A stretch of DNA of 64,000 nucleotides from a virus: positions 1-64,000 of IMG/VR virus record IMGVR_UViG_3300037851_001030, one strand, 5' to 3'. The notes beneath the pieces are model-generated. The model saw only the letters and a program-made list of their open reading frames with translations. It was not told the origin of the DNA and did no database searches. A program made the position numbers and the translations under genes. Position 1 is the stretch's first letter. Each line of letters starts with the position of its first letter. This document shows, piece by piece, positions 1,942 through 54,997 of the stretch.

Positions 1942-1943
1942 AC

Positions 1944-1972
1944 CCAAAACTCACCCCGACGGCTAGTTTTGG
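1944..1972. repeat. 8-bp perfect inverted repeat (CCAAAACT / AGTTTTGG, 13-nt spacer) filling the 33-bp gap between two divergent start codons
   Basis: Read directly: cat-ACCCAAAACT-caccccgacggct-AGTTTTGGT-catg. The symmetry extends to 10 of 12 positions including both ATGs. Confidence 0.7.
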
Positions 1973-1974
1973 TC

Positions 1975-5889: not shown

Positions 5890-7994
5890 CAGGGCGTGAC
5901 CGCGGGTCCCGTGAACTGGTTGACGGTCAGGATCTCGGCTTCGATGTAGACGCCGTAGACCTTGTCACCGATCCCGGACGTACGCGGTCGGAAACCGATC
6001 CGAAGCATGTCGACGTAGCTGCCTACGGTGGCTTTTCCGTGCGTCCAGCCCATGCGGTCCGTAGACATCGTGTCAAGACGCCGCTCGGCCGAGGCTGACC
6101 CGAACTCCAGGTACCCGAGAGCAGCGTTGAGCGTGGTGACCACGGGCGGATTCGCGTCCCATATGGTCTTTCTGATATGGTCCGCATACATGAGCATCCG
6201 GTTCGCACCCGTGGCCTCACCGGCGGCCGCTTCCCAGTCCACGTTCACCCCGATGATAACACAGCCCTCGGGAAAGTACGAGGTCTGGAGCACGAGCGTG
6301 ATCTCAGTGCCAACGCCCGCGACGATCGTCTGGTAGAAGAAGTTGGCAGCGGGCGTGCCCGGCCACTGGGTCTGCCAGTAGGTTGGGTGCGGAGAGAACG
6401 TGAGGGGCAGCGCCCAGGTCACGGTCTTGACCGCAGTGTGACCAAAAGAGCTGCCCTCGACGCCCACACTGTTGTTCGACGTTCCCCGGACCCCAACAGC
6501 ATTCAGACCGTCGCCGTGCAAACCGGCGGCCCCCGCGTTCATGGACCGCCCGAAGATACCGATGGAACCCGAGTTGTTGCCCGCGTTCGTGACCGAGACC
6601 AGGTTCGTGGTCTCGCGGCCACTGATGTCGATGCAGGCAGCGCCGTTGTACCACTCGGGCCGAAGGACGATGTTTCCCTTCTCGAGCAAGTAGAACACCT
6701 CGGTCGTGTGACCAGGATCCAGGTAGAGGCCGCGAAGAACCTTGCTGGTGCCTCCCTGCAACCAGGCGATGGTCTTGCCGGCGTAGATCGACGGTGGCGC
6801 CGCGGACCCGAGGAACTCGAAGTCGCCGCTGTTGAGACCCAGATTGATGCCGAAGAGCGCGTTTACGTTTGACCCGATGATAGACCGCACGATGTAGATG
6901 TTCGCGGTCAGGCCGGGCTCGGCCACCATCGCGGGGATCACGCCCATGGGCCCCTTCACGCCCGCGGTCGTGGCGCCCGTCACGTCGAGCAGGAACACGC
7001 CGTTGTTCGATCCACTTGGGCTGCCGCTGATCTCGACGAGCACGAGCATGGCGCCCGTGACCGCGCCGTAGTTATAGGTGATCAGGCTGCACCCGACGCG
7101 CGTAAACGTGATCGGTCCCCCGGCACCAGCGGCCACGTCGATCGGCTCGTCTGCCTGGATATCGGTGCCGAAGACCAGGCGCTCGCGCACAAGGAGACCG
7201 CCGAGGTGGTTGAGTCCGTTCTTGACGATGTCGAGGCCGAGGGAGCCTGGTGCTGACGATCCTTCCTGGCGCACGCGCACGGCCGAATTGAAGATGTCCT
7301 CGACTCGGTCTGCGGTCACGTCCTGCACGACCTCGACCGCGCCACTATCCGCCGTGATAACGCGACCGGCCCCGCTACCGCCGTCGTCGTAGGCGCCGTC
7401 CAGCGTGGCCGCACCCTTCGCCGTGACCAGGGTCCAGGCGGATCCGTCCCACACGTAGAGCCCGTCGTTCGACTGCACGTGGTAGATGTCGCCCTCGCGC
7501 ACCGTCGAGTCCGTGGGCAGGTCTCCGGTCGTCGCGACCGTGCCCTTCCAGATGAGGCGACCCAGGGGCCCGCACTCGTCGCGCACGTCGTAGTGGATGT
7601 TGGCCGCCAGCACCTCAGTGGCACCGCCCGCGAGCTGGACGCGCCCGAGCACGATGAGGTAGTCCTTCTCCGCGTGCGCGGTGTAGGCCGACGCGCTCAT
7701 GACGACCTCGCTGAGCGTCGGGGTGCTCGGGTCGCCGAGAGCGTTGTACTTGGCCAGGATGCAGTGGTAGTTGTCGGTGCCGGGCGTGTACGTCAGCGTC
7801 TGGTACTGCGTGTCACGGACCGTGCACCCGTCCTGGCCCACGGCGCCGATGGGGGACCGCACGCACTGGAGCGTGCCGGCGATCGGCGTCAGGCGCCCAC
7901 CGTAGTAGATGCCGCGCTGCATGAGCCGCGACAGGCGCGCGTTCAAGGCCTCGGTCGCGTCACGGTGCTCGTACTGGAAGATCAGCTCTAGCAT
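5889..7994 (-). CDS. Tail-fibre-like protein, 701 aa
   Basis: ATG 7994 with GAGGCGGA upstream. Contains the GDIYHVQSNDGLYVWDGSAWTLV motif typical of phage fibre proteins. Long Gly/Ser/Asn-rich beta regions. Confidence 0.75.
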   Translation of the reverse strand: MLELIFQYEHRDATEALNARLSRLMQRGIYYGGRLTPIAGTLQCVRSPIGAVGQDGCTVRDTQYQTLTYTPGTDNYHCILAKYNALGDPSTPTLSEVVMSASAYTAHAEKDYLIVLGRVQLAGGATEVLAANIHYDVRDECGPLGRLIWKGTVATTGDLPTDSTVREGDIYHVQSNDGLYVWDGSAWTLVTAKGAATLDGAYDDGGSGAGRVITADSGAVEVVQDVTADRVEDIFNSAVRVRQEGSSAPGSLGLDIVKNGLNHLGGLLVRERLVFGTDIQADEPIDVAAGAGGPITFTRVGCSLITYNYGAVTGAMLVLVEISGSPSGSNNGVFLLDVTGATTAGVKGPMGVIPAMVAEPGLTANIYIVRSIIGSNVNALFGINLGLNSGDFEFLGSAAPPSIYAGKTIAWLQGGTSKVLRGLYLDPGHTTEVFYLLEKGNIVLRPEWYNGAACIDISGRETTNLVSVTNAGNNSGSIGIFGRSMNAGAAGLHGDGLNAVGVRGTSNNSVGVEGSSFGHTAVKTVTWALPLTFSPHPTYWQTQWPGTPAANFFYQTIVAGVGTEITLVLQTSYFPEGCVIIGVNVDWEAAAGEATGANRMLMYADHIRKTIWDANPPVVTTLNAALGYLEFGSASAERRLDTMSTDRMGWTHGKATVGSYVDMLRIGFRPRTSGIGDKVYGVYIEAEILTVNQFTGPAVTP

Positions 7995-9639: not shown

Positions 9640-9746
9640 GGCCAAACCTCCGTAGCGTTCAGCCCCTGAGGTCGTATAGGTCGCCGATAGCTACGACGTT
9701 CCCATCGGGAAGCTTCACGTCGCGCTGCTTATCTTCATGGCCAAAC

Positions 9747-9863
9747 CTAATCCCGCTTGGACTCCTCGAGCTGAGCCAGGACCTGGTGGAGCGTCTGGAA
9801 ACGAATGATCGACCACAGGTCAGCAATCGGAGCAATGGTGATCTTTGGGAGTTGCGCGGTCAA
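9747..9863 (-). CDS. Possible small protein (38 aa), TTG start overlapping the upstream stop (TTGA)
   Basis: Coding-like frame ...TAQLPKITIAPIADLWSIIRFQTLHQVLAQLEESKRD. GGAG lies 7 nt upstream of the TTG. The rest of track ORF 9747..9953 overlaps the neighbouring gene. Confidence 0.3.
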   Translation of the reverse strand: MTAQLPKITIAPIADLWSIIRFQTLHQVLAQLEESKRD

Positions 9864-10159
9864 AACACTGGCTCCGGGTCTGGGGTCGATTGGTCCTCTG
9901 GCGGAAACGGTGTGTAGCCGATCAGGCGCGTGCAGCGTTTGCACTTGTACCATCCGTCACCCTGGCAGTCGCCTGTGGGGTCCCCTATAGGCGTGAAGCA
10001 CTCATGCGAATCATCGTCGAGCGCCATGGCCTGGTTCATGAGCCACGTCCGCACCGATGGAGGCATCTTCGGTGGTGCAGGGATATTCATTGCATCGAGG
10101 CGAGATCTCCACTGATCGAGCGCCTCCAACCACATTTTGACTTCTTCGAAGTGAGTCAT
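9860..10159 (-). CDS. Hypothetical protein with C-terminal CxxC (99 aa)
   Basis: ATG 10159 forms an ATGA overlap with the upstream stop (MTHFEEVKMWLEALDQW...). Confidence 0.65.
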   Translation of the reverse strand: MTHFEEVKMWLEALDQWRSRLDAMNIPAPPKMPPSVRTWLMNQAMALDDDSHECFTPIGDPTGDCQGDGWYKCKRCTRLIGYTPFPPEDQSTPDPEPVF

Positions 10160-10416
10160 GTCTTGTCCCTCATCCAGCACGGAGGACAAGTGTATTCCGT
10201 GTCGGGTTCTGGCCAGTCAATCAGATCCGCGAAGTTCCTATTTACGCAGTCAGCGATATTAGCATCGATACCCTCGAACTTCGACGAGTCGTACCACACA
10301 TGCTCGATGGCTCGCTTAACCGCAGTACCATCGGCAGCACAGTTGTGGACGACCTGTTCGATGGGCATCCGCCTACCGCATTTCGGACACTGCCAGTAGA
10401 ACTGAATCGAACTCAT
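10156..10416 (-). CDS. Zinc-ribbon protein (CPKC...CPPC), 86 aa
   Basis: ATG 10416 preceded by GAGGATGAGG. Paired CxxC motifs sit at both ends. Confidence 0.7.
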   Translation of the reverse strand: MSSIQFYWQCPKCGRRMPIEQVVHNCAADGTAVKRAIEHVWYDSSKFEGIDANIADCVNRNFADLIDWPEPDTEYTCPPCWMRDKT

Positions 10417-10545
10417 GCCTCATCCTCGCTCGTGCAGTATCTGAAGTCCCTCCGCTCGACGTGTCACGTTCCAGGCTGATCCTGACCTCCATTCCGTAGC
10501 TGGAATGTGGCAGCGGACCACGATGTAACCGAGCCTCCGGCAAGG

Positions 10546-10992
10546 CTAAGGTGCCTTGCGGACCGACAGCTCCCACGGGTAGAAGGTCTCCATCTGACCA
10601 TCCGTGCTCACGCTGTAGACTGCGTAGGGCTTGACACGGCCTGCACCCGTCACGGTTCCGTGCCGGCCGCGGTGCTCCCCCCGCGTGATGATAACCTCGG
10701 TTCCGATCGGTATCAGCTCAAGCTGATACAGCCCGCTCTTGATCGCGACGACACCGTTCACGACTTCAGCGGGGCCGAGGGCCATGGACACGTCGTAGTT
10801 GTCAACCGGCCTGCCGTCGTGCTCGTAGAGCCGAAAGCGCTCGCCGGCCTTCACCTGGTTGAAGGGCACCGCGTGAAGCTCGCAGCCGTAGGCGTCGACC
10901 AGCATGACAGTTCGGGTCTTTACCGGTAGCTTGGGAGTCTGGGCATCGGAGGCGTGTGCGCCCTCACTGACCATAATCTCGAACTTGGCCAT
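10546..10992 (-). CDS. Hypothetical protein (148 aa)
   Basis: Full track ORF with plausible composition. Contains a KOW-like stretch GTEVIITRGEHRGRHGTVTG. Confidence 0.7.
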   Translation of the reverse strand: MAKFEIMVSEGAHASDAQTPKLPVKTRTVMLVDAYGCELHAVPFNQVKAGERFRLYEHDGRPVDNYDVSMALGPAEVVNGVVAIKSGLYQLELIPIGTEVIITRGEHRGRHGTVTGAGRVKPYAVYSVSTDGQMETFYPWELSVRKAP

Positions 10993-12313: not shown

Positions 12314-12587
12314 CTGGCTACCTCCTCGCGCTCTTGCGCACAGCCGGGATCAGTGGCTTGTCGGCCGGCCCCTTGACGCACTCCCGTTGACGGTAGGTCA
12401 AGACCGCCAGCCACTCCCCGCTGCCCTTCTGACGTAGGCCACGCGATTCTAGCAGCCGATAGGTCTCGAAGTCAACTTTATCTGTGCAGATAACGTAGCG
12501 GCGACGTCGGAGTCGAACAGCGAGGCACGACCCTTGAGCCCCGTCTCATCGTCCCTCCTGCCACCACAGATGTCTTACCACGGTCTC

Positions 12588-14361: not shown

Positions 14362-14952
14362 TCACGCGTACGGCTTGAGCGCGTCGAGCGCGATCGCGGT
14401 CGGTTCGTTGATGATCGCGCCGCCCTCGACCGTGAACTGGAACGCCTCAAGCGCGGAAGCCACCACCTTGACCTCAGGTGCGCTACATGCGTACGCCAGG
14501 ATGTGGGACGCAACCTGATCGATCGGCGTCACGATCTCACCGTAGCGCCAGTATTCGAGTTCCAGGCGCGTGCCATAGGCAACCGCCTCGTAGACCGCAC
14601 GATTGGCCTTGGACGCGAGATACAGGACTGGGAACGATGGGTCGTTCAGGTACTGGAGCACGTGCACGTGCTCGTGAACCAGCACCACGATCTGAGCCCA
14701 GCGATCGTAGTACTCAGTCTCGACCCCGAGCGAGAACGGCGCATAGACGTCCTGGATCAGCGTGGTCGTGAACCGCTTCAAGAACGCTTCGTGGTCGAGC
14801 ACGCCCATGACCTGGAGCGTGTTGCCCACGGTCACCATGAGTGGGTGCTGGTCCTTGCGAATGAGCCGAGTGTTGTATCGCGCCCGCAACGCTTGCCAGA
14901 CGTCGGTTACGGCCTCGGCAGGTACTGGGTCTAGCTTCACTGGGGTAGGCAT
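14362..14952 (-). CDS. HExxH zinc-metallopeptidase-like protein (196 aa)
   Basis: Internal ATG 14952 (MPTPVKLDPVPAEAV...). Motif VVLVHEHVHVLQY. Confidence 0.6.
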   Translation of the reverse strand: MPTPVKLDPVPAEAVTDVWQALRARYNTRLIRKDQHPLMVTVGNTLQVMGVLDHEAFLKRFTTTLIQDVYAPFSLGVETEYYDRWAQIVVLVHEHVHVLQYLNDPSFPVLYLASKANRAVYEAVAYGTRLELEYWRYGEIVTPIDQVASHILAYACSAPEVKVVASALEAFQFTVEGGAIINEPTAIALDALKPYA

Positions 14953-15152
14953 GCGGCCCCCGCATCGGTCGTCTGGCAGCTCATGAGCTTCTCCGTGCGC
15001 GGCAAGCGCGCACAATCCATGAGCGGCTTCCACGTGCGGTCGGTCGAGCAGATCTCAACCACGCTCGCCGCGCAACGTCGGGTGGCCACCGTGGTGCAGG
15101 GTGGGCCGCAACCGACGAGCGCGAGGCCTAGCGCCACGTACAGGACGCGCAT
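14937..15152 (-). CDS. Small Cys-rich lipoprotein (71 aa)
   Basis: The last 71 codons of track ORF 14937..15668 read MRVLYVALGLALVGCGPPC..., a signal peptide with lipobox LVGC. The ATG sits 1 nt after the upstream stop. Confidence 0.5.
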   Translation of the reverse strand: MRVLYVALGLALVGCGPPCTTVATRRCAASVVEICSTDRTWKPLMDCARLPRTEKLMSCQTTDAGAACLPQ

Positions 15153-15826: not shown

Positions 15827-17967
15827 GGGCTAACCCTACCACGATCGTGATCGTCTTGCAATCGTCCGCGAGTGCTAGCTGGTAACAGGGCCGAAGGCCG
15901 ATTCAAAAGCTTGGGATCGACATCGGACGACTCAGGACTCGACTGCGCGACAGGATAGCTAACCCACTGAGCGGGGCCCATCGGGCCCCGGTGGGTTCGC
16001 TGTCCTGTCGCGGGGGCCTTCGGCCCCCTTCGAGTTTGGCCACGGACAACGGATCCACTCCTTGAATCCTCTAGTACAGTACGGATAGGGATCCCCTTAC
16101 TGGGATCCCTATCCGTATATAGATCAATCAAAGGAGGTATCTGTTCTATGGAGTTCTGCTCACCCTGTTCGGAGCGCTGAACAGCCTGAGACTGCTGGAG
16201 TCTGCGCTCGCGACGCTTCAGCAACCTCGCGTATTCTTCTTCTTCGCTGAAGTCGTTCCACTCGGCCTCGGGCTCCGGCTTCAGCTCGGGCTCGGGCGTG
16301 ACCTCGTCCCAGTTCTCGAGCGAGTCGAACAGGCCCTCTTCGGGAGCCCAGTTCTGGTACCCAAGGATCTCGGCCTCGCGGTCGAAGTCCGCCTGCTCGC
16401 GCTCGGCCTTCTGGTCGGCGCGCTCGCGCTCAGCCCGCTGGCGCTCACGCTCGGCGGTCGCCAGTGCCAGGCGCTCCTGCTCAGCCCGCTTGCGCCGGGC
16501 GGCCAGCCGCTGACAGTGCGTCCCGTAGGACGGCGTGCAGTCGACGAGGCCGTCGGGGCCCTCTCGCTTGAGCCCGACGAGCGCGGCGGTTGTGCGACCG
16601 CCGGTCCGTGATCGAACGCGATACGGGTGCTTCGTGCGGCCGGCGCGGACGCGGAACGCACGCGGAACCCGGATACCCTTGATGCCCTCCACCATGGTCT
16701 GCACGTCCTCACGGAGCTGTTCCCACTCGAGGTAGTTCCGGATCGAAATATCGTGGCCATCCCCTTGGGGCCGCGTCCAGCTACGAACGGCCGTGAACGC
16801 ACGGCAGCCTCGCGGGCGGTCGACGAGAAGGTCGAAGGGCCACATGTACTTCCGCCACAGGGCTTCGGGTACCGGACCGTAGTCAGGACCAGCGTACCCC
16901 TTCCGATAGGCCGCGCCGCAGGGAAGGTCGTAGGTCACGAGGTAGCCGCCGGGCACGCGCTGAGCGCGCGGCTGGCGCAGGCCCTTCCGTTCGCAGTTCA
17001 GCCGGATCTGGGCTAGCTGCCGGCCGCTTACGGGCCCGTTAACAATCTCGAGTGAGCGTCGGATGAGTCGGACCGGGATCCGGTTCTTGCGGATGGCTCG
17101 GTTCCAGGCACAGGCTGTAGACAGACTGATACCGAAGGCAGCCGCAGCCGTCTCGTTCGAGATATAGTAGCGCTGGCGCTTGCAGTCGGCTGGCCGACCA
17201 CCCCGCGTGGCGTCGGTTGCGCGGTCGAGCGCTCGGTAGCACTCTTGCGCGCTTGGTAGGTCGCCCTCGGGGTCGAACGCCTCCCGTACCCTGCGGTTGC
17301 GTTCGCCATCGCTTTGGGTGGCGCCTCCCCAGACCCCGCGCAGGCGCGAGTAGAGGGACTGAGCACAGAACGTGGCCCAGTGCCTGGCGTCGGCGCGGGG
17401 TCGGCGTGCCACGACCTCAGCAAGCGGTCGTCGCTCCGTGTAGTGGTGCGCCATGTAGAGCCAGCGGCGCACGTGGGATTCGATCCAGTTGTTTCGGTGC
17501 AGGTGGTCCTGGAGCGCTTCGAGGTAGGCATCGATCTCCGGGAACTTCAGCACCACGCGATCGCCCACGTACTCGACCCGTACGATTCCGGAGGCCGAAA
17601 GGCGGTCGAGAGCTGCGCGCGCGTACCGGTCGTTGGCTTTGCGCCCCATGCGATAGTGGCAGGTACTGGCCACCAGGTTGAGGACCTCGCGCCTGCGCGC
17701 GCTGTAGCTCTGGGCTACGTCGAGCTGGGTGATCTCGTGCGCGCACGCGAGCTGGAGTGAGATCGCGAGTACGGCTGACGGCATCCGACGGTGACCCTGG
17801 ACTCGGTCGTAGAGCGACGTGAGGAGCAGCCAGGAGTCGCGGATCTCGAGTCGGCTGCCGTAGACCTCGTCGAAGGTCGTCGCGATGTGGTCGCGCTCGA
17901 TCACTGTATCAGAATACGTAAGGTTTTCCGTCCACACGAACCAGCTCCACGAGCAGGAAGCCAACAT
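15823..17967 (-). CDS. Large DNA-binding protein (winged-helix/HTH plus Glu/Arg coiled coil); candidate replication initiator or regulator; both ends uncertain
   Basis: 714-codon open frame. HTH-like YYISNETAAAAFGISLSTACAWNRAIRKN. Coiled coil RKRAEQERLALATAERERQRAERERADQKAEREQ. An alternative GTG start at 17904 lies 5 nt after the upstream stop. The last ~105 codons lose GC3 bias and coincide with the hairpins. Confidence 0.65.
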   Translation of the reverse strand: MLASCSWSWFVWTENLTYSDTVIERDHIATTFDEVYGSRLEIRDSWLLLTSLYDRVQGHRRMPSAVLAISLQLACAHEITQLDVAQSYSARRREVLNLVASTCHYRMGRKANDRYARAALDRLSASGIVRVEYVGDRVVLKFPEIDAYLEALQDHLHRNNWIESHVRRWLYMAHHYTERRPLAEVVARRPRADARHWATFCAQSLYSRLRGVWGGATQSDGERNRRVREAFDPEGDLPSAQECYRALDRATDATRGGRPADCKRQRYYISNETAAAAFGISLSTACAWNRAIRKNRIPVRLIRRSLEIVNGPVSGRQLAQIRLNCERKGLRQPRAQRVPGGYLVTYDLPCGAAYRKGYAGPDYGPVPEALWRKYMWPFDLLVDRPRGCRAFTAVRSWTRPQGDGHDISIRNYLEWEQLREDVQTMVEGIKGIRVPRAFRVRAGRTKHPYRVRSRTGGRTTAALVGLKREGPDGLVDCTPSYGTHCQRLAARRKRAEQERLALATAERERQRAERERADQKAEREQADFDREAEILGYQNWAPEEGLFDSLENWDEVTPEPELKPEPEAEWNDFSEEEEYARLLKRRERRLQQSQAVQRSEQGEQNSIEQIPPLIDLYTDRDPSKGIPIRTVLEDSRSGSVVRGQTRRGPKAPATGQRTHRGPMGPAQWVSYPVAQSSPESSDVDPKLLNRPSALLPASTRGRLQDDHDRGRVSP
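15946..16028. other. Nested long hairpin (22-bp outer stem with one mismatch, plus a 7-bp GC inner stem) followed by a GGGGGCC-TTC-GGCCCCC hairpin
   Basis: CGCGACAGGATAGCTAACCCAC (15946..15967) pairs with GTGGGTTCGCTGTCCTGTCGCG (15991..16012). Inner stem GGGGCCC-ATC-GGGCCCC (15973..15989). Second hairpin at 16012..16028. Confidence 0.75.
16081..16116. other. Perfect 14-bp inverted repeat (ACGGATAGGGATCC / GGATCCCTATCCGT, 8-nt loop) next to an A/T-rich patch
   Basis: Read directly. Three GGATCC copies lie within 16050..16110. ATATAGATCAATCAAAGGAGG follows immediately. Confidence 0.75.
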
Positions 17968-18544
17968 CCGAGGCCTCGTCCGCGTGCACGTACATGATCC
18001 AGGGTGCGGACACGGGCTTGCTATTCCAGGGCTGCCAGACGACGAGGAGCTGGCCGCTGGGGTCGCGCCTCAGGTCTGGCACGCGGTCGCTCAAGACCAC
18101 CTGGTTCTCGAACAGGAGATCAGCTACGTCGGTTGTCGCGATCTCTAGCTGGTGGAAGCCCAGGCGCGAGAGCTGGTGCTTGGCCGCTTCGAGCGCACGA
18201 CCCGTGCGCGAGCTGACGAACGTGAGCGACATCGGTTGCGTGCTCTCGAGGTAGCGGAGCGCGTTCAGCACCACGGGGTTTGGAGCGAGCGCAGCGACCC
18301 GGAAGCTATCGTTGAACTGTGCGACCAGTTCCTCAGCCCGCCTGCGCTCGATACCAAGCACGGGCGCGAGCGCCCCGACGAAGTCTGGGGTCGTGAGCTG
18401 CTGGTGTCGAAGCGCTGTTTGCGGGTACAGGGGCCGGAGATAGGCAAGGAGACCACCCGCGTAATCCAAGAGCACACCATCTATCTCACAGTATACGTGC
18501 CTCAAGAGTCCTCTCAGCAGTGTCGGAGATAGGAGACGGCCCAC
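17909..18544 (-). CDS. HAD-superfamily hydrolase, 5'(3')-deoxyribonucleotidase-like; start uncertain
   Basis: N-terminal HVYCEIDGVLLDY matches the DxDGV HAD motif I. The GTG at 18544 overlaps the upstream gene by 31 nt. An internal TTG would give MRHVYCEIDG. Confidence 0.55.
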   Translation of the reverse strand: MGRLLSPTLLRGLLRHVYCEIDGVLLDYAGGLLAYLRPLYPQTALRHQQLTTPDFVGALAPVLGIERRRAEELVAQFNDSFRVAALAPNPVVLNALRYLESTQPMSLTFVSSRTGRALEAAKHQLSRLGFHQLEIATTDVADLLFENQVVLSDRVPDLRRDPSGQLLVVWQPWNSKPVSAPWIMYVHADEASDVGFLLVELVRVDGKPYVF

Positions 18545-18937: not shown

Positions 18938-18992
18938 CGTTAGAACCCCCGCGTCATGGAAAGCTAAGCAGCGCTCAGGCTACCAGGCGCGC

Positions 18993-19022
18993 TTGACCGG
19001 CGTCAAGAATCTGTGCTAGAAC
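18993..19022 (+). promoter_or_regulatory. Candidate promoter for the plus-strand island, geometry compatible with a leaderless transcript
   Basis: TTGACC (18993..18998), an 18-nt spacer, then TAGAAC (19017..19022). The ATG at 19030 is 7 nt after the -10 element and has no Shine-Dalgarno. TTGACCGGCGTCAA is itself an inverted repeat. Confidence 0.3.
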
Positions 19023-19029: not shown

Positions 19030-19338
19030 ATGGACATGCCTTCGTTCGAGGAGCTGGTACGACGTTTGGAAATGGTGGAGCGCAAGCTCTCGGTGCCGGT
19101 ACCGCGTACCACGTGCTTGGGTAGTGCCGAGGCCACGGTGGCCGCGCAGCTCGACATCCAGCACAGCGCCTCGGCTCAGGGCGCGTTCGTGACGACGGAG
19201 CTAGAAAAGGGCGTAGATGGCGAGTGGCACTACCGCGGCCGCCCCGCGCATCAGGTCGTGATCCGCGCGTTCCTTGACGGACTCAAGCCGGGGGTCGTGC
19301 TTCGCGTTTTGGCACCTACCAAGGGAGATAAACCATGA
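19030..19338 (+). CDS. Hypothetical protein (102 aa), translationally coupled to the caspase-like gene
   Basis: Full track ORF. ATGA overlap with the next gene. Confidence 0.65.
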   Translation: MDMPSFEELVRRLEMVERKLSVPVPRTTCLGSAEATVAAQLDIQHSASAQGAFVTTELEKGVDGEWHYRGRPAHQVVIRAFLDGLKPGVVLRVLAPTKGDKP

Positions 19339-20174
19339 TTCGCAAGGCCCTGCTCGTCGGGATCAACGCGTACGACGACTCCCCGCTTAGCGGGTGCGTG
19401 AACGATGCGATCGACCTCCGGGCCATGCTCATCAGTCGAGGCTGGGAGTCGAAGAACATCCGGATGCTGTGCGACCACCGGGCCACGGATCGGGCCATGC
19501 GAGAGCGCCTGCGCTGGCTGACGTACGACACCAAGAGCGACGCCCAGCTCGTGTTCGGGTTCTCCGGTCACGGGACTCAGCTCCGCGACCGATCGGGTGA
19601 CGAGGACTTGCTCGACCACAAGGACGAGGCTCTCTGCCCGATCGACTATGATGACATCTGGGATAATCCGTTCATCGACGACGTGCTGGCCGACGAATTC
19701 AAGCGCCTCGGCAGGAACCAGCGGCTGACGGTCGTGCTCGATTGCTGCCACTCGGGCACGGGCACGCGCGCCGTGCGCAATCCGGAGGAGATCAAGACGG
19801 AGCTGACCCCGATGCGCCGGGCGAAGTTCGTGCGCGCTCCGATCGACGTCGAGCTACGGGCCGAAGGGTGCACCGCAACCCGAAGGCTCGGTGTCAAGCG
19901 CCGCGGCCTGACGTTCGACACGGACCCCGCCATGCGCCACGTGCTGATCGCTGCCTGTCAGAGCAACCAGACGGCGGCCGACGCCCAGTTCGGTGACCGA
20001 CCCAACGGCGCGCTCACCCGGCACCTGCTGAACGCGTTCAAGACCCTAGGGCCGGCCCATACGTGGGTGGACATCATGCTCGAGACGGCTCGCACGCTCA
20101 AGGCCGACGGCTTCGAGCAGACGCCTGCGCTCGAAGGCATGGCGTCGCTCATCAATGGCTACCCAGACTTCTAG
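19335..20174 (+). CDS. Caspase-like (peptidase C14 / metacaspase-type) cysteine protease, 279 aa
   Basis: ALLVGINAYDDSPLSGCVNDA, the His site FGFSGHGTQ and the Cys site VVLDCCHSGTG occur in canonical order and spacing. GGGAGATAAACC lies upstream of the ATG. Confidence 0.85.
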   Translation: MIRKALLVGINAYDDSPLSGCVNDAIDLRAMLISRGWESKNIRMLCDHRATDRAMRERLRWLTYDTKSDAQLVFGFSGHGTQLRDRSGDEDLLDHKDEALCPIDYDDIWDNPFIDDVLADEFKRLGRNQRLTVVLDCCHSGTGTRAVRNPEEIKTELTPMRRAKFVRAPIDVELRAEGCTATRRLGVKRRGLTFDTDPAMRHVLIAACQSNQTAADAQFGDRPNGALTRHLLNAFKTLGPAHTWVDIMLETARTLKADGFEQTPALEGMASLINGYPDF

Positions 20175-20409
20175 ACCATACATGTCGGCGACCGAGTATC
20201 GCGCAAGGTACGACTTGACGACGGTACCTGGATTCGAAAAGGGGACGCGTGCCTCCGATCTAGTCCTCGGAGATACGGGACCATTCGTAGGTTGTCGTTC
20301 GAGAACACGGTCTTTGTCTACGAGGTAGAGTGGGACGACGGCTAACACGGTCGTTATTTTCGCCACGGAATAGACCCGGAGCCCGAGACCTCGGGAAGGA
20401 TAGTATGAA

Positions 20410-20751
20410 ATGGTCGATCGTGTTCTTGAGCTTTTCGAGCGGTTTGTCGTGGCCTACGAGCGTCGCGTTGAGCTGCTTTCGGCCTCGGCTCAGTCCTCGG
20501 TCTCAGCCTCGTCAACCTACACGGCTCTTCGTATTCGAGGCGGCTACGAATCCAAGCACAAGATCCAGTTCATCAAGGACGTCCGAGAGCTAACGGGAAT
20601 CGGCCTCAAAGAGGCCAAGAACGTCGTTGAGGGAGCGCGTCCCCTCATCGTGAAGACGAAGATGGTAGAGAGTATCTCTGAGGCGGCTGCCCGCTCCGCA
20701 TTGGTTATTCTCGAGAGCCTCGAGAATAACCTACCGATCGTGGTGTGGTGA
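20410..20751 (+). CDS. Ribosomal protein L7/L12 C-terminal-domain-like protein (113 aa)
   Basis: KIQFIKDVRELTGIGLKEAKNVVEGA closely parallels the L12 CTD core ([26 protein letters not shown]). GGGAAGGA lies upstream of the ATG. Confidence 0.7.
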   Translation: MVDRVLELFERFVVAYERRVELLSASAQSSVSASSTYTALRIRGGYESKHKIQFIKDVRELTGIGLKEAKNVVEGARPLIVKTKMVESISEAAARSALVILESLENNLPIVVW

Positions 20752-20755
20752 CCCG

Positions 20756-21115
20756 ATGAGCAGAGACCTTGGCGACTACAAGAGCCACGAATACTCGCCA
20801 CCAGACAGTAACGGCCGCGTGCTCTGTGAGTTCTACTGCGGCGAGTGCGTCGGGTACGTGTACGTGAAGCTCAACACCGCGCTCGAGGGCAACCACGTGG
20901 TTAACTGTCCAAACTGTGGGCACAAGCACTATCGCGTCGTCAAGGACGGGATCATCACCGACTGCCGGTTCAACGAGAACCAGGCGATCGCCGACGAGAT
21001 CGTGCCTATGAGGAGCGCCTGGCAGAAGGAGCGCCGGCCGCCCCCAGAGCTGGAGCCGGGTAAGGGCGCGGTCGCGATCATCCGTCAGCTCGAGGCCGTG
21101 GGAGAACACCGCTGA
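20756..21115 (+). CDS. Zinc-ribbon protein (CGEC...CPNCGH), 119 aa
   Basis: Full track ORF with plausible composition. Confidence 0.7.
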   Translation: MSRDLGDYKSHEYSPPDSNGRVLCEFYCGECVGYVYVKLNTALEGNHVVNCPNCGHKHYRVVKDGIITDCRFNENQAIADEIVPMRSAWQKERRPPPELEPGKGAVAIIRQLEAVGEHR

Positions 21116-21129
21116 GGAAGGAGAAGGCC

Positions 21130-21285
21130 ATGGAGAACAGTCAGGGGTACAGCGTCCGCTCGTGGAGGGAGAAGGAGGTCCGCACGTCCTGGGCTCGCAA
21201 GATCCTGCGCGAGATGGTGAAGCACGAGGTTGTGCGAGAGGTCGGTGTGGCTGGACGGTCCCGGACTTATGAGGCCGTGACATAG
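21130..21285 (+). CDS. Small protein (51 aa), possibly winged-helix
   Basis: Below the track size cutoff. ATG 21130 preceded by GGAAGGAGAAGG. MENSQGYSVRSWREKEVRTSWARKILREMVKHEVVREVGVAGRSRTYEAVT, then TAG. Confidence 0.45.
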   Translation: MENSQGYSVRSWREKEVRTSWARKILREMVKHEVVREVGVAGRSRTYEAVT

Positions 21286-21571
21286 CATCATGGTGGAGCT
21301 TTGACAACATCTCCTGGGTTGGACCGTATCCGACGATGAAGGTTGCGCTGACCGAGGCGCGGTGGACCATATCTGCGTCCGACCGACTGGAGAACGAAGG
21401 GTGAGTGATGATCGCGGATGTTGGCGACGCTGGACCATGCCGGGTACGATCCGAAGACGTCCCGGTGGTCGGCGCGTCGTCGTTGTTCAGCGACCATTGC
21501 CTGCGGTCGTCCGCTTCGCTTACAGACCACCCGAACGAGACCTCGTGATCGAGGAAGAAAGGACCAAGGCC

Positions 21572-21931
21572 ATGGGAGAAGCTAAGGACATCGTGGGGGT
21601 TGCGGCCGCGCCCAAGTCGCAGAGCCCGGACCGCCCGGAGCCGCAGGCTCGCGCGTTCCGCGATCGTAAGCTCCAGGTGGGATCACGCGCACGCGCAGGC
21701 GCCGGCACTGGCGTGCTCGGAGACCTATCGACCATGGTGGACCGACTCGATCGCGCGATCGAGGTCAAGCTTCAGGACCTCGACAACGAGCCTACCGCGA
21801 TCGCCGAGAACCACGTCAAGCTCGGTCTCCTGCGCGGGTCCTCCGCTCTTATCCGGAGAGCAAAGGCCATGCTCGAGGACTACGGACGCGACCTGGCGGA
21901 CGACATGGACCCGGCGGTTGATGTCGGCTGA
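21572..21931 (+). CDS. Hypothetical protein (119 aa)
   Basis: Internal ATG 21572 of track ORF 21362..21931, preceded by GAGGAAGAAAGGA. The upstream part is Arg-rich off-frame sequence. Confidence 0.6.
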   Translation: MGEAKDIVGVAAAPKSQSPDRPEPQARAFRDRKLQVGSRARAGAGTGVLGDLSTMVDRLDRAIEVKLQDLDNEPTAIAENHVKLGLLRGSSALIRRAKAMLEDYGRDLADDMDPAVDVG

Positions 21932-22281
21932 TGGAGGACGCGATGGTCGGTCCGAGTGACGATGGTAAGCACTTCGACGGTTCCGGTATTCCAACGCTGG
22001 CCGAAGTCCGGGCGCGCTCGGCGGAGCGAAGCAGCCCGCCTGTCGAGAGCGCGAGGGACATCGCGGACAAGGTCATGAGCGCCACCTGGCAGGCGATGCG
22101 CAACGACCGGCGCTTGCAGCCGTACGCGAATGGCGCGATCGAGATGGCCCTCGCGCTCCGCGCGTTTGATGCCGAGCACGCGGAGCTGTGGTCTCACCGG
22201 CTCAATACTTGTCCGGGTCACGAGGATGAGGGCGGACGCGACTGGTGCGCTTACTGTGGACCGCTACCGAAAGGATCGTAG
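21931..22281 (+). CDS. Hypothetical protein (116 aa)
   Basis: Full track ORF. TGATG overlap with the upstream gene. Confidence 0.65.
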   Translation: MEDAMVGPSDDGKHFDGSGIPTLAEVRARSAERSSPPVESARDIADKVMSATWQAMRNDRRLQPYANGAIEMALALRAFDAEHAELWSHRLNTCPGHEDEGGRDWCAYCGPLPKGS

Positions 22282-22283
22282 AC

Positions 22284-22733
22284 ATGCCACTGTCTCTCAA
22301 CACGCCGTCGAGTGCCAGGCCCCAGCGGCTGGTGTGGGACCCCAAGAACCGAGACGACGCGCACCAGGCCGGCCTACGAACGGGAGAGCTTCTACGCCAG
22401 GGGTGGACGCCAGCGCGGCCGCTGTCCGACGCCGAGATCGTAGGTGAGCAGCTAATGTATCCACCTACGAAGCCAGCGTACGAGGGCGTCATGCGGGTCC
22501 TCGATGAAAACGGTGACAGCCGCGTCGTGTGGGACCGGCGCGACAAGAACCAGGTGAAGGAGGCGTTCGCCAAGTTCAAGGACTTCATCGTCAAGGGCTA
22601 TCGCGCCTACGTGGTGAGGGGCGACGGTAGCCGCGGGAGCCGGCTCGACGAGTTCGACCCTCTGCTCGAAGAGATCCTCGTCGGGTCGAGGCCCGAGGAG
22701 CTGGTCATGGTGCCCGCCACGGTACCCAGCTAG
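22284..22733 (+). CDS. Hypothetical protein (149 aa)
   Basis: Internal ATG 22284 (MPLSLNTPSS...), 2 nt after the upstream stop. Confidence 0.65.
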   Translation: MPLSLNTPSSARPQRLVWDPKNRDDAHQAGLRTGELLRQGWTPARPLSDAEIVGEQLMYPPTKPAYEGVMRVLDENGDSRVVWDRRDKNQVKEAFAKFKDFIVKGYRAYVVRGDGSRGSRLDEFDPLLEEILVGSRPEELVMVPATVPS

Positions 22734-22743
22734 GAGGTTACCT

Positions 22744-23496
22744 ATGGTTACGAACACCATAACCTGGCATTCGGATAACAGCATGTGGAGCCCAGACCTG
22801 TGGACCAATTACACCCCCAGCTCCTGGGTCACTCAGGACGAGATGGCGGCGTCCAACCATATCTGGGTTGTGCCTTCGCTGGCGACCGTCACGTCGGCGT
22901 CAATCACTAGCGCTGTAGATACGAACTGGGTATGGGTACGTTCGTGGCAAGCCGATGCGGATTCGTCGGGCGGCACGCTGACGGCCGGCAGTTGGTGGCA
23001 CACGGTTCCCGAGGCGCAGAATTACTGGGTCATCAACGGGCTGCCCGAGCTGTCGAAGGCCGAACGGTTCCGTGAGCGGTTGCGGTCCCAGATGGACCCT
23101 GCATTGCGTTCGAGGTCCGACCCCAACCAGTTCGGGAACGTGGCGCAGAACGAGATCGTGGCACTCCAACTGCTGAAGTCCATGGTGAGCACCGATCGCT
23201 GGCGCAAGTACCTCAAGCATGGGTTCGTGGACGTGGTTGGGAGAAGTGGCCTCGTGTATCAGATCACGAGGGGAAAGTCGCACGTGCGTGTGTTCCGTCA
23301 AGGTGAGCGCCTCGCCGAGCTATGCGTGGTCCTTAAGAACCGGCACGCCATGCCGCCCACCGACGAGGTGATCACGCGCATGCTTATCGCGGAGAGCGAC
23401 GAGTCCGACCTCTGGCGCCGAGCCAACGTGTACGGCCTTAAGCATCCTCGGCCCCAGACTGAGGAGGATCTGGCCCGCATCGTGCTCGCGGCCTAG
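22744..23496 (+). CDS. Hypothetical Trp-rich protein (250 aa)
   Basis: ATG preceded by TAGGAGGTTACCT. Full track ORF. Confidence 0.7.
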   Translation: MVTNTITWHSDNSMWSPDLWTNYTPSSWVTQDEMAASNHIWVVPSLATVTSASITSAVDTNWVWVRSWQADADSSGGTLTAGSWWHTVPEAQNYWVINGLPELSKAERFRERLRSQMDPALRSRSDPNQFGNVAQNEIVALQLLKSMVSTDRWRKYLKHGFVDVVGRSGLVYQITRGKSHVRVFRQGERLAELCVVLKNRHAMPPTDEVITRMLIAESDESDLWRRANVYGLKHPRPQTEEDLARIVLAA

Positions 23497-23504
23497 CTTT
23501 TGGT

Positions 23505-24005
23505 ATGTACGCCATCCTCGCACTGGTCACCAACCGCACGAAGCGCACGTTCCAGATCTGCGCCCGACTCGGGTACGCGTATCAGGTCACGCATTTCTGC
23601 GTGGGGGCTAGCGGGCACGACCCCGATAGCCCGATCACGGCCAAGACCCCGGACCCGGACTACGACCCGATCCCACTCGCGACCGGGGACCGGCTACCAG
23701 AAGACCGCACGATCGACGCGACGGCCATCACGAGCGCCGAGGACGATCCGTACTACGCAACGATCTGGACGTGCGTGCTTCCGAAGACCGTGGCGACGGG
23801 ACCGCTCTCGAGCATCTATCTGCTGGCCAAGATGGTCTACCCTGGAACGCCGGTCGGTACCCAGCTCGCGGACTACAACGCGGCGCTCGTAGCCGCCGGC
23901 CTGCCCGAGGTCGGCAAGTTCTGGGTCCACTCGTTCGCCTACACTCCACTATCAGTGAAGGTAGACACCGAGGTTCGCACGCTGCCTTGTGCTGTTGTGT
24001 ATTAG
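23505..24005 (+). CDS. Hypothetical protein, possibly tail-collar-fibre (DUF3751)-like, 166 aa
   Basis: Full track ORF. HFCVGASGHDPDSPITAKTPDPDYDPIPL...YLLAKMVYPG is weakly reminiscent of the P2 gpH N-terminal type domain. Confidence 0.55.
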   Translation: MYAILALVTNRTKRTFQICARLGYAYQVTHFCVGASGHDPDSPITAKTPDPDYDPIPLATGDRLPEDRTIDATAITSAEDDPYYATIWTCVLPKTVATGPLSSIYLLAKMVYPGTPVGTQLADYNAALVAAGLPEVGKFWVHSFAYTPLSVKVDTEVRTLPCAVVY

Positions 24006-26485: not shown

Positions 26486-27781
26486 CTACGCCGACTCGAA
26501 GTCGGGCGGCGCCCCGCCGTGCAGGGAATTCGAGACCGGGGCCGTAGTCGAACACGACCCGCTCAGCCTAGTCCACTCCCATTCGAAGACCGCGGGCGGG
26601 TCCCGTCTCTGGGAGCTTAGCTCAGTAGATACAGCCACCACCGAGTCGAACCACACGTCCGAATCAAGCGGCGTGAGCGAGCACCCAGTCCACAGCTCGG
26701 TGAAGGGCTCTCCGCTATCTAGGGCGCTGCCGCTATCGAGGGGCCCACTGTCGAAGGGCGTGCCCGCCCCTAGCCCTGGTGGTAGCACGACGGCGTCGGG
26801 TCGATACGACCAGAACCGGCGCGCGACCTCGACCGACGTTGAGGGTGACACGAACGCCATCCAGGTGTCCATGGTCCCTATGAGGCCGAGTAGATACTGT
26901 AGGTTGTGCTGCGGCCAGTGGCTGTGGAGCACGGTCTGCCAGCCAGGCTCGTCTCCCTCGTCTGTGGGGTCCCAGGTGCCCATCCCGACCCCGATATAGG
27001 AGGTCGCTTCGACCGCCGACCGGAGGCGTAGTTGCTGAGGCACGTTGACCGCGAGCTGCCAGAGGGCGCGCTCACGTGCGGTGGGTAGGTCTGGGAGCCA
27101 GACGTTGAACTCGTAACCGTGATAGCTGGCGGGCGCCGGCCACAGCGTGTGTATCGCCGGGTCTACAATCGACCCCGGTATCATGGGTACGATGATGGGC
27201 GACCCGAGGGAGAAGGCCGCCGCGATCGAGTCGATCCCGAGCGTGGTGGGCGCCCCGTGAAAGACCGCACGACCGAGAAGCTTGACGGCGAGCGCTCGCA
27301 GGGCCTGGGTGTCAGGCAGCGACTGATGGTACTTGAAACGGAACTCGGTAGGGCGACTCGACCAGCGCGACGTCAGGCTCCAGTACTGAACCAGGTAGTC
27401 GAGGTACGTGTGCCGGAAGTAGTCGAGCGCCGCGCCCTTGTGAACAAGGGCCTGGTAGGAGAGCGAGACCCCGATCGATGCCTCTTCCCCGACGTCGTCG
27501 ACCACGCGCACCCAGTTGACGTCGGGCCACGGGGCAAGCGGACCAAGCTCCAGACGCACCGCGATCGAGTCGAGACCTATCTCCCCGACGAGACCGCCGT
27601 TCAGGTACACGCGGACTCGGCGCCCCATCGTTCCGGTTATCACGAACGCGGTTCGTGCCTCGATGGGCCTCGGGTTTGGGCCCGAGGTTGTGTACGCCAG
27701 TCCCGGCGGGATCGCGGCCATGATCCGCTGGAAGACCTGGTCTTCGTAGGATCCTACGGGCGCGATCGCGAGCGCGGTCAC
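26486..27781 (-). CDS. Baseplate-module structural protein (431 aa)
   Basis: GTG start in a GTGA overlap with the J-like gene. Function is suggested only by its position downstream of that gene. Confidence 0.7.
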   Translation of the reverse strand: MTALAIAPVGSYEDQVFQRIMAAIPPGLAYTTSGPNPRPIEARTAFVITGTMGRRVRVYLNGGLVGEIGLDSIAVRLELGPLAPWPDVNWVRVVDDVGEEASIGVSLSYQALVHKGAALDYFRHTYLDYLVQYWSLTSRWSSRPTEFRFKYHQSLPDTQALRALAVKLLGRAVFHGAPTTLGIDSIAAAFSLGSPIIVPMIPGSIVDPAIHTLWPAPASYHGYEFNVWLPDLPTARERALWQLAVNVPQQLRLRSAVEATSYIGVGMGTWDPTDEGDEPGWQTVLHSHWPQHNLQYLLGLIGTMDTWMAFVSPSTSVEVARRFWSYRPDAVVLPPGLGAGTPFDSGPLDSGSALDSGEPFTELWTGCSLTPLDSDVWFDSVVAVSTELSSQRRDPPAVFEWEWTRLSGSCSTTAPVSNSLHGGAPPDFESA

Positions 27782-29169
27782 AGGGCCACCACCCTCAGGT
27801 TGACGACCGGGTACTCGTGCGGCGCGAAGATGATGGGCTGCACCAGCATCGTCGCGCGATCCGGACGGTTGAACTTGTTCAGGACCATGCTGACCGAGAG
27901 CCTTGCCGTGAGGTCGTCGGCAAACGCCTTCGGGTCAAGCTCAAGCACGAAGTGCTGACGCGAGGTCAGGAGCGTGGGGTCTCGGAACCACCGCGTGACG
28001 AGGCTCTCGACGTCGGTCACGCGTGCCCCCGCGCCGTAGCTCGTGACCACCAGCTCGACGTCAACCGGAACCTGCTTGCCTTCGCGTACGATGGCGTCGG
28101 TTTGGAAGAGCTGAGCGTTGCTCTCGTTCATGTAGTTGTGGAAGTCGAGCACGAGCGCGTTGTAGCTGTAGGCCACGTAGACCGTATGCCCCGGTCCTGG
28201 CGCGGTGTCGAGGTCGATGGCGTCCTGCGCGAAGACCGTGCCACGAGTCGCCGGAGCCGTATCCCGTATGATAGTGTAGGTCGCCGCCACGCCGTCGACG
28301 AGCACGGCCGTTACCTCGAGCAGCGGGGCCTCTGGCAGCACGATCGTGGTCTCGGTGCCCGAGGTCGTGTACGTGTAGTCGGTCACGCCCAGTCGAGACC
28401 CGATGACGTAGATGTCGATCATCGAGCGCACCATACCGCTCGGCAGCCGCTCGAAGACGCCGACGTCGGCCGGCGTCAGTACCGCAGTGTCCTCGACCGC
28501 GCCCTGGGTGAAGCGGATCCCGAGGCTGGCGAGGCCGCCGGGCGTGCCGAGTGAATTTCCGAGTAGGACGGAGCGCAGGTCGTCGACGAACTCCTGGAGC
28601 GACTGGTTGGTGGAGCCGCCACGGAACTCGGAACTCGTGACACCGGAGACCCCCGAGATAGGGGTCTGGAGCACGTTGACGCTGCCCTCGGCGCAGTCGT
28701 AGTCGGGCCCGATCTCGACGGCCTCGGCCGGAACCGTGATCTCGTAGCGCCGCCTGCTGGCGACGAAGTAGGCCGCCACGTTGGCTGCGAAGAAGGTCAC
28801 GGCCTGGAGCGTCTTGTAGAAGTAGCGGCCGTCCGAGGTCGACCCCAGGGTCCCTTCCTCGATCGGTGTGTCTGCCTTGATCTCGTATGCGTAGAACGTC
28901 AGGTAGCCCTGGGACGGAGTGCCCTGGCTCAGGCTCATGCCGTAGTCACGGCCGACGGATGCGATCTCCTCGGTGGACCAGCGGTCAGCCGTCTCGAACT
29001 GGTAGCGCTGCGCCAGCGCATCGTTGGCAGCCTCTTGCTTCGATATCTCGACGGCCCATGGGTAGTGCGCGGTCTCGTAGACGGGGCCCTTGCGGGTGTC
29101 CACGTTCGGATTGATAAGCTCGGTGGTCTCAGCCATCGAGCGCGTGATTTCGTCGACGTCGCGCGCCAC
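27778..29169 (-). CDS. Baseplate J (gp47/gpJ)-like protein, 463 aa
   Basis: GYLTFYAYEIKADTPIEEGTLGSTSDGRYFYKT and VNVLQTPISGVSGVTSSEFRGGSTNQSLQEFVDDLRSVLLG follow the baseplate-J family pattern. Confidence 0.6.
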   Translation of the reverse strand: MARDVDEITRSMAETTELINPNVDTRKGPVYETAHYPWAVEISKQEAANDALAQRYQFETADRWSTEEIASVGRDYGMSLSQGTPSQGYLTFYAYEIKADTPIEEGTLGSTSDGRYFYKTLQAVTFFAANVAAYFVASRRRYEITVPAEAVEIGPDYDCAEGSVNVLQTPISGVSGVTSSEFRGGSTNQSLQEFVDDLRSVLLGNSLGTPGGLASLGIRFTQGAVEDTAVLTPADVGVFERLPSGMVRSMIDIYVIGSRLGVTDYTYTTSGTETTIVLPEAPLLEVTAVLVDGVAATYTIIRDTAPATRGTVFAQDAIDLDTAPGPGHTVYVAYSYNALVLDFHNYMNESNAQLFQTDAIVREGKQVPVDVELVVTSYGAGARVTDVESLVTRWFRDPTLLTSRQHFVLELDPKAFADDLTARLSVSMVLNKFNRPDRATMLVQPIIFAPHEYPVVNLRVVAL

Positions 29170-30025: not shown

Positions 30026-30027
30026 AG

Positions 30028-30100
30028 TGGAGCCGGGAGGACTCGAACCCCCTACCTCTAGCTTGCACAGCTAGCGCTCTCCCAGTTGAGCTACGGCCCC
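30028..30100 (-). tRNA. tRNA-Ala (anticodon UGC), CCA not encoded, unusual G at position 33
   Basis: GGGGCCG-TA-GCTC-AACTGGGA-GAGC-G-CTAGC-TGTGCAA-GCTAG-AGGTA-GGGGG-TTCGAGT-CCTCC-CGGCTCC-A. G3:U70 alanine identity pair. Canonical T-loop. Confidence 0.85.
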
Positions 30101-37491: not shown

Positions 37492-42117
<4,626 letters not shown>

Positions 42118-50802: not shown

Positions 50803-50810
50803 GTTTGCTC

Positions 50811-52661: not shown

Positions 52662-52662
52662 G

Positions 52663-54993: not shown

Positions 54994-54997
54994 CGTC

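Follow-up and report, generated by a model that had tools for sequence, protein, structure and literature searches.

We analyzed a 64,000-nucleotide stretch of viral DNA (positions 1 to 64,000 of the IMG/VR record IMGVR_UViG_3300037851_001030, source contig 210,455 bp; hereafter the window) around a pair of overlapping genes, the second of which encodes a caspase-like protease. The assignment of this enzyme to the C14 metacaspase/orthocaspase type leaves very little room for doubt. The protein is predicted to be a catalytically competent C14B endopeptidase, consisting of a minimal p20-like plus p10-like core with neither prodomain nor sensor, that would cut after arginine or lysine. In the explanation that we favor, a large phage with a high guanine-plus-cytosine (GC) content would carry the protease as a resident, non-structural accessory gene. 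It would share a transcript with the small upstream gene; the promoter, probably of the host type, would lie in the divergent intergenic region, and expression would hence presumably be early. The single-chain product would be matured or activated via a flexible inter-domain linker, possibly by autoprocessing, and would then cleave proteins of the host, and possibly of the phage, within the infected cell, serving either host takeover or the destruction of defence proteins. The upstream protein of 102 amino acids (aa) would be co-expressed; it is probably not a dedicated inhibitor or substrate but an unrelated small phage protein peculiar to the lineage. Taken as a whole, the proposal of an early, non-structural intracellular protease for host takeover or counter-defence stands, in our estimate, about evenly between right and wrong. 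The features on which the argument relies are the following.

18992-19022 (+): promoter-like sequence TTGACC-N15-TGcTAGAAC in the 92-bp divergent intergenic region, followed by TCTGTGCTAGAACAGA
19030-24005 (+): plus-strand island of ~5 kb with about nine small genes, the operon first, between minus-strand blocks (from maps of open reading frames, ORFs)
19030-19338 (+): partner gene, 102 aa, with an N-terminal helix, a variable middle and a ~45-aa C-terminal mini-domain, DGEWxYxGrPAHQVVIxxFLdGLKPGVVL
19321-19327 (+): Shine-Dalgarno-like AAGGGAG, read from the sequence, in the 3' end of the partner gene and 7 nt 5' of the protease ATG
19335-20174 (+): metacaspase/orthocaspase-type cysteine protease (MEROPS C14B-like), 279 aa, p20-like and p10-like core only
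19569-19571 (+): codon of the catalytic His79 (SGHG), aligning with the catalytic His of SGHG in TbMCA2, Yca1 and CgMCA-I
19746-19748 (+): codon of the catalytic Cys138 (second Cys of DCCHSG), aligning with Cys213 of TbMCA2 (Gly in the 4AF8 mutant chain)
19752-19835 (+): p20/p10 linker, residues 140-167, containing R145 and K164; predicted local distance difference test score (pLDDT) <50

The 279-residue product is matched by the Pfam hidden Markov model (HMM) Peptidase_C14 (PF00656, clan CD) over residues 3-268 (E=7.9e-27; 94.9 bits, cut-off 21.4). Pfam detected no second domain in it, and the chain ends 11 residues past the C14 domain. With a profile made from 18 homologues, CgMCA-I, Yca1, AtMC4, TbMCA2 and AtMC9 were matched at E=4e-51 to 6e-37, and the bacterial protein GSU0716 at E=5e-25. 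The AlphaFold2 model (pLDDT 78.6, predicted template modeling score 0.80) has the caspase-hemoglobinase alpha/beta fold, and its top Foldseek matches were AtMC4, AtMC9, GSU0716, CgMCA-I, TbMCA2 and Yca1. The Foldseek probability was 1.00 for metacaspases, the paracaspase MALT1 and caspases, with MALT1 and the animal caspases ranking far below the metacaspases. Conservation was assessed in an alignment with 72 non-identical viral and 119 database homologues. The two catalytic residues, H79 and C138, are conserved in 191/191 sequences, as are D24 and D136; position 137 varies (C, S or A) and C138 is fixed. An earlier note, made from the DNA sequence alone, had described a caspase/metacaspase core with the dyad SGHG ... 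DCCHSG in place and without any sensor or effector domain, and all of this is borne out. Of the two ways in which that description could have failed, a missing C14 profile match or a dyad that varies among homologues, neither was encountered. The term caspase-like holds as regards membership of C14, and can be narrowed to the metacaspase/orthocaspase branch with an acidic S1 pocket, as distinct from the animal-caspase type.

The pocket was identified by alignment, using the residue roles published for TbMCA2 and CgMCA-I (PMC4357240, PMC9622860). The S1 residues Cys92, Asp95, Ser156 and Asp211 of TbMCA2 correspond to C21, D24, S77 and D136 of the window protein, so the S1 pocket is intact. This acidic pocket leads to a predicted cleavage after Arg or Lys and not after Asp, and the P1 preference should thus be for basic residues. 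Orthocaspases are described as cutting after basic residues (PMC6426788), and the caspase of type IV Thoeris, a bacterial relative, is Arg-specific by experiment (bioRxiv 10.1101/2024.10.24.620036). The Ca2+ site is conserved in part. Asp173, Asp189 and Asp190 of TbMCA2 are D97, D115 and D116 here, but the four-aspartate site is not complete, as Asp220 (Asp245 in CgMCA-I) is replaced by R145 (codon 19767-19769). Position 145 is R or K in 119/119 of the close database homologues and in 53/72 of the viral ones (R in 51/72), and D in 17/72 of the latter. The Arg at this position suggests a regulation that is independent of Ca2+, in which R145 may act as a built-in positive charge that replaces the metal. 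Since the four-aspartate site is a feature of eukaryotic metacaspases and not of all C14B members, R145 places the protein with the orthocaspase-like enzymes and not with the canonical type I metacaspases. The linker between the p20-like and p10-like parts contains a second, near-invariant basic position, 164, which is R or K in 119/119 database homologues (R in 116/119) and in 69/72 viral homologues, and K in the window protein. From the model and the alignment, K164 is a plausible candidate for an autoprocessing site.

Both ORFs of the operon are present in the ORF map, and the TGA stop codon of the partner overlaps the ATG of the protease (ccATGAtt, 19335-19338); the pair has a common transcript and is probably translated jointly as well. 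The ATGA overlap and the position of the pair at the head of a strand-switched island, flanked by minus-strand blocks, are as the earlier note had them. Gene calls made independently on L095, a further assembly of this phage, are consistent with the gene map of the window. The protease gene does not differ in GC content from the genome around it, which points to a resident gene; a recent horizontal acquisition was rejected on the same ground. Upstream of the operon, a perfect 6-4-6 palindrome (CTTGACCGGCGTCAAG, 18992-19007) overlaps the promoter-like element; it is unique in the window, with 0.08 occurrences expected by chance. The 38-nt core of the intergenic region is identical in a related phage fragment (L001), despite diverged coding DNA on its flanks. 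The first ATG lies 7 nt past the -10-like hexamer and has no obvious Shine-Dalgarno sequence. One other similar site is present in the window (12446-12475), and is not significant. From these sequence features we infer a promoter function for the element at 18992-19022, from which the RNA polymerase of the host might produce an early, leaderless transcript.

Directly 3' of the protease lies a gene (20410-20751, +) whose 113-aa product has the C-terminal domain (CTD) of ribosomal L7/L12 (PF00542, E=1.4e-10, above threshold). The protein is without the L12 N-terminal domain, and has weak matches to hypothetical proteins of the crAss-like phage cr50_1 and of Enterobacter phages, one of 249 kb. 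The CTD of L7/L12 is the part that contacts EF-Tu and EF-G, and EF-Tu is cut by bacterial caspase-like defence proteases. None of the other island genes received a family assignment. On the other side of the operon, a 211-aa gene (17909-18544, -), located between genes for proteins of 714 and 73 aa, is missing from the otherwise syntenic L001, which indicates local mosaicism beside the operon.

The protease gene resides in a phage genome, with phage genes flanking the operon on both sides. About 45 ORFs of the window were scanned for phage and cellular gene content, with the following phage-type matches.

1315-3111: head-tail connector-like protein
27778-29169: baseplate wedge protein
33465-37490 and 37492-41829 (-): two adjacent collagen-repeat tail fibres, 1,341 and 1,445 aa
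46058-47176: HNH endonuclease
58819-60030 (-): third fibre-like protein

The phage context supposed at the outset is confirmed by the connector, baseplate and tail genes to either side of the operon; the tRNA-Ala gene among the tail genes is a further phage-type feature. The collagen-repeat and third fibre-like proteins match actinophage-style 'collagen like minor tail' PHROGs, and together with the GC content of 63.6% these matches may hint at a high-GC host. No cellular housekeeping genes were found among the ORFs scanned. Gene order is shared with two further assemblies, L001 and L095. No close DNA relative was found among 50,697 GenBank phage records, nor in a single-sequence scan of IMG/VR.

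Relatives of the protease are numerous. A word-indexed search with a limit of E<=1e-5 returned 2,192 homologues, most of which are proteins of ~270 aa with a single domain. IMG/VR contains at least 183 metacaspase loci; among the 80 that were retrieved, 8 are on contigs >200 kb and 7 in metagenome-assembled genomes (MAGs) of giant viruses. At least 587 matches were obtained in GTDB species genomes (Desulfobacterota, Nitrosomonadales, Methanothrix, Spirochaetota, Planctomycetota, Chloroflexota and others). The GenBank phage records yielded three tblastn matches, the best being a 485-kb uncultured phage with 34% identity. Only giant-virus proteins share the fold in BFVD (E down to 5e-17), with no bacteriophage entry among them. 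The closest relatives (P0002-P0006, P0009 and P0010) are 46-57% identical, and form with the window protein a neighbor-joining subclade of 10-12 sequences, none of which comes from the 185,579 species genomes. The window protease thus belongs to a small subclade on phage-like contigs, nested in a large family of standalone ~270-aa proteases. The nearest relatives (46-55% identity) lie in blocks of phage genes for replication and nucleotide metabolism: L002 and L003 have the gene flanked by ribonucleotide reductase, dCMP deaminase, an HU-like protein and a 5'-3' exonuclease, with ThyX or DNA ligase on the other side. Portal or capsid genes never adjoin the protease gene in the nearest relatives.

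Some loci have neighbors of their own. Two genes upstream of the metacaspase in L086, a phage-like contig counted with the nearest relatives (6475-7338, 9646-10608; relative P0014, 43% identity) lies a gene for Tad6, a Thoeris anti-defence protein, and two genes downstream a weakly Zeta_toxin-like gene. Members of one viral sublineage (L051, 282-3218; L037, L040, L042, L044, L055) have the metacaspase followed by Hsp20 (E=3e-13), ClpS (E=4e-24) and a SufBD-like gene, with a weakly YkuD-like ORF upstream. With an N-degron adaptor and a small heat-shock protein beside the metacaspase, those phages may possess a module for proteostasis or degradation. Conserved neighbors were also looked for around viral and around cellular metacaspases; the result was lineage-level synteny only, with nothing in common with the window. 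One 62,246-bp contig (L108 and L010) is listed both as an IMG/VR viral genome and in the MAG of a 'Deltaproteobacteria bacterium', and some of the 'cellular' metacaspase matches may accordingly be binned phage contigs.

Several observations weigh against an early, intracellular takeover or counter-defence protease, and are given here together. A generic sigma-70 promoter and terminator scan did not report the element upstream of the operon, which is only a consensus-like, conserved sequence. Given Arg145 at the position of the fourth Ca2+ ligand, the regulation of the enzyme may differ from that of the characterized metacaspases. Clustering of the neighborhoods of viral or cellular loci yielded no conserved neighbor family (the best cellular one was present at 5/80 loci), so that the genomic context is almost silent on function, in phages as in cells. 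Capsid and terminase genes were not identified within the window, and the identification as a phage therefore rests on the matches to connector, baseplate, tail-fibre and HNH proteins, together with the lack of cellular genes. Finally, a promiscuous Arg-specific protease left unregulated would put the phage itself at risk. This argues for some form of control, for which the partner is the closest candidate.

The partner is a genuine coding gene, as shown by the bias to synonymous changes relative to its homologue on L001. Over 100 aligned codons there are 20 synonymous-only and 13 nonsynonymous changes (9/7/22 at the three codon positions), and the gene is under purifying selection in this comparison. 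The homologue (P0122), the sole full-length one, is 58% identical overall and 87% in the aligned parts, and has a 48-aa insertion between the N-terminal and C-terminal modules. The middle region of the partner is probably disordered. No matches to the partner were found in Pfam (even at E<=1), PHROG, PADLOC or the PDB sequences. Searched exhaustively with HMMER, 1.84 billion representatives contained 7 matching proteins, five of which (64-177 aa) match by the C-terminal mini-domain only, joined to different N-termini or to zinc ribbons. The mini-domain also occurs in contexts without a metacaspase, namely an extended array of small phage-like genes (L093) and a site just after a DnaB helicase gene. 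When an HMM of the mini-domain was run against six-frame translations of 170-odd loci, only the window lineage and L093/L094 were matched, and neither partner nor mini-domain is present at any other metacaspase locus examined, viral or cellular (~150 non-redundant). The AlphaFold2 model of the partner is unreliable (pLDDT 45) and too poor for a fold comparison with PCi, the small inhibitor, of CI-2-like fold, of the bacterial protease PCaspase. A supposed paralogue at 14926-14729 (tblastn E=4e-4) was dismissed, being an alternative frame of a longer and better ORF and compositional noise in high-GC DNA.

These data bear on the alternative that the two genes form a regulated pair, in which the 102-aa protein is a co-translated inhibitor, a chaperone or the first substrate of the protease and would restrain the bare enzyme until its time has come (as PCi does for PCaspase), or else is an antitoxin to a protease toxin. 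We consider this unlikely, the least so of the alternatives. A sensor-less protease needs control; L001 preserves the 4-nt overlap of stop and start codons; and the partner, under purifying selection, is better conserved there than the N-terminus of the protease (87% versus 70%). There is also the precedent of PCaspase and PCi, as PCi is likewise lineage-specific (bioRxiv 10.1101/2023.06.23.546230), and the nearest relatives L002 and L003 too have an ORF of ~100 aa that overlaps the start of the protease gene. However, L001 is a related phage fragment with the same flanking genes, and the adjacency of the pair in it is therefore not independent evidence; co-occurrence is confined to this one close phage lineage, whereas the mini-domain is found in phage loci that have no metacaspase. 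The ~100-aa ORFs of L002 and L003 form a related pair (E=4e-32) with no demonstrable homology to the partner (BLASTP E=0.03 and 0.25; hhalign probability <2% with 2- and 7-sequence profiles), and the ORF upstream of the metacaspase in L092 is a different one, of 70 aa and Cys-rich. A CI-2-like inhibitor found no support at the level of sequence: no PDB sequence match to CI-2 or any other chain was obtained, nor was there a match to another inhibitor family; Pfam gave no match to the DNA-binding folds of antitoxins (helix-turn-helix, ribbon-helix-helix, AbrB). Gene overlaps, moreover, are normal in dense phage genomes. Comparative genomics thus lends no support to a dedicated functional pair, and the earlier note's two-gene unit, with the partner as inhibitor or substrate, loses ground accordingly.

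Next in order, and also unlikely, is a role in defence or exclusion carried by the phage, with the protease acting as an abortive-infection executioner against competing phages or as part of an addiction module of a lysogen. The characterized bacterial caspase systems, standalone or of two genes, serve as effectors of defence, breaking down proteins after Arg without discrimination, and such operons have been reported on mobile elements. The PADLOC 'caspase' model matches the window protease (E=3e-21), but over the protease core only (profile positions 5-158 of 453). The C-terminal sensor of Thoeris IV and a TIR partner are both missing, and no PADLOC component (SAVED-CHAT, cyclase, CRISPR or other) was found among the nine neighboring genes. 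The window showed neither integrase nor repressor, and the nearest relatives are located among the replication genes of apparently lytic-type modules.

Third, phages might have adopted the executioner-type Arg-specific caspase of the cell in its bare, sensor-less form for offensive use early in infection, for instance against defence proteins or translation factors. Its timing would be set by a PCi-like, lineage-specific co-translated protein, and the L7/L12-CTD-like neighbor in the window, or ClpS and Hsp20 in the other viral sublineage, would direct the protease to its targets or clear away the products of cleavage. This we regard as improbable.

Very improbable, in our judgment, is that the gene is not a phage gene, the protease being a cellular standalone metacaspase beside a prophage or part of a chimeric contig. 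The family is abundant in cellular genomes, where some of the GTDB matches are on contigs of several Mb, and a 44%-identical relative lies inside a bacterial polysaccharide-synthesis cluster (L087). Against this, connector, baseplate and tail genes flank the operon to either side, the ORFs scanned in the window yielded no cellular gene, the GC content is uniform, and the closest relatives are on phage-like contigs, in a subclade without members from species genomes.

The weakest alternative, a virion-maturation protease for prohead or scaffold processing, can be given hardly any weight: phages commonly need such an enzyme, none was identified in the window, and a distant sublineage (L058, L064, L067, L072) has the metacaspase 1-3 kb from a 321-aa ORF that is capsid-like by eye, but this ORF has no Pfam match, and the window gene lies in a small-gene island on the strand opposite to the structural block, with its nearest relatives among replication genes. 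The known prohead proteases have S78, U35 and S80 herpesvirus-assemblin-like folds, not those of clan CD, and are located between the portal and capsid genes. The virion-maturation role that had been suggested for the protease is thus disfavored by the position of its gene.

The window contains further features outside the operon.

14362-15033 (-): ORF of 223 aa with the HExxH motif VLVHEHVHVLQY and no Pfam match
30027-30100 (-): tRNA-Ala (TGC), among tail and baseplate genes
44941-45771 (-): DHH/DHHA1 phosphoesterase-family protein (Pfam E=1.8e-7 and 5e-4)

The HExxH motif suggests that the 223-aa product is a metallopeptidase. The large ORFs at 48595-58810 (-), encoding proteins of 735, 637, 660, 424 and 835 aa, have no significant Pfam or PHROG match; a single borderline match of the 424-aa protein is to a PHROG family of unknown function (E=3e-4).

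The proposal of an early takeover or counter-defence protease is of interest since the caspase-like proteases of bacteria, as in type IV Thoeris and PCaspase, are promiscuous Arg-specific executioners of abortive infection, and the same core, without a sensor, is found here in phage genomes. The phage-borne subclade and the relatives on at least 183 viral contigs raise the questions of what a virus gains from a suicide enzyme of the cell and how it avoids harming itself. The phenomenon is almost invisible in the curated phage resources (GenBank phages, BFVD). The literature searched treats viral metacaspases at the level of annotation only, as auxiliary genes, and a comparative review of jumbo phages (PMC7824862) does not mention caspases. 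The gene itself is a phage-borne addition to a known, very large enzyme family; the enzyme class is ordinary and nothing in the data reveals a new mechanism.

Comparison with characterized systems defines the position of the window protein further. Type IV Thoeris consists of a short TIR protein together with a caspase-like protease that is Arg-specific and promiscuous, and cuts EF-Tu and RplE (bioRxiv 10.1101/2024.10.24.620036). It is, as in the window, a two-gene operon that pairs a small protein with a caspase-like protease, but the partner in the window has no TIR domain, the window protease is without the C-terminal domain for which N7-cADPR binding has been proposed, and the genes are in a phage genome and not in a defence island. 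PCaspase, from a type III-B CRISPR/CBASS cascade of Haliangium ochraceum, is a standalone protease with the dyad H79/C146 and broad substrates once activated; PCi has no homologues elsewhere (bioRxiv 10.1101/2023.06.23.546230). The dyad positions are near-identical in PCaspase and the window protein (H79/C146 versus H79/C138), a likeness by description and not by sequence alignment. PCaspase is activated by SAVED-CHAT cleavage, and its locus contains a sigma factor and a kinase, none of which is near the window gene; nor were SAVED-CHAT, cyclase or CRISPR genes (type III, CBASS) found among the window ORFs scanned. The only PHROG match of the protease is phrog_18397, of unknown function, and no prohead-protease profile was matched. 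Overall, the locus is not type IV Thoeris or a SAVED-CHAT/PCaspase cascade; by position and profile it is not a prohead protease; and it is not a recognizable toxin-antitoxin pair. The enzyme, a true C14 member, would act in the manner of an orthocaspase or of PCaspase-type proteases.

Among virus-encoded enzymes with the C14 fold, the metacaspases of giant eukaryotic viruses (Fadolivirus, Clandestinovirus, Yasminevirus and others) differ from the window protein in having eukaryotic hosts and in being longer (330-410 aa). The type I metacaspases (Yca1, 4F6O; CgMCA-I, 7QP0; TbMCA2, 4AF8) resemble it in fold, order of elements, the dyad in SGHG and D-x-C-H-S-G, the acidic S1 pocket and three of the four Ca2+-site aspartates (D97, D115, D116). 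Unlike them, the window protein is prokaryotic/viral, has no N-terminal prodomain and a much shorter linker, is only ~20-25% identical, and has Arg145 in place of the fourth Ca2+ ligand (Asp220 in TbMCA2, Asp245 in CgMCA-I). Orthocaspases such as MaOC1 of Microcystis are, like the window protein, prokaryotic C14 enzymes with the HC dyad in the p20-like domain and a specificity for basic P1 residues (PMC6426788), predicted for the window protein; MaOC1 is chromosomal and cleaves a neighboring antitoxin (PMC7935541), whereas the window locus is without a toxin-antitoxin module. GSU0716 (3BIJ, from structural genomics) is, like the window protein, a single-domain protein (~285 aa), and its fold matches that of the phage protease strongly.

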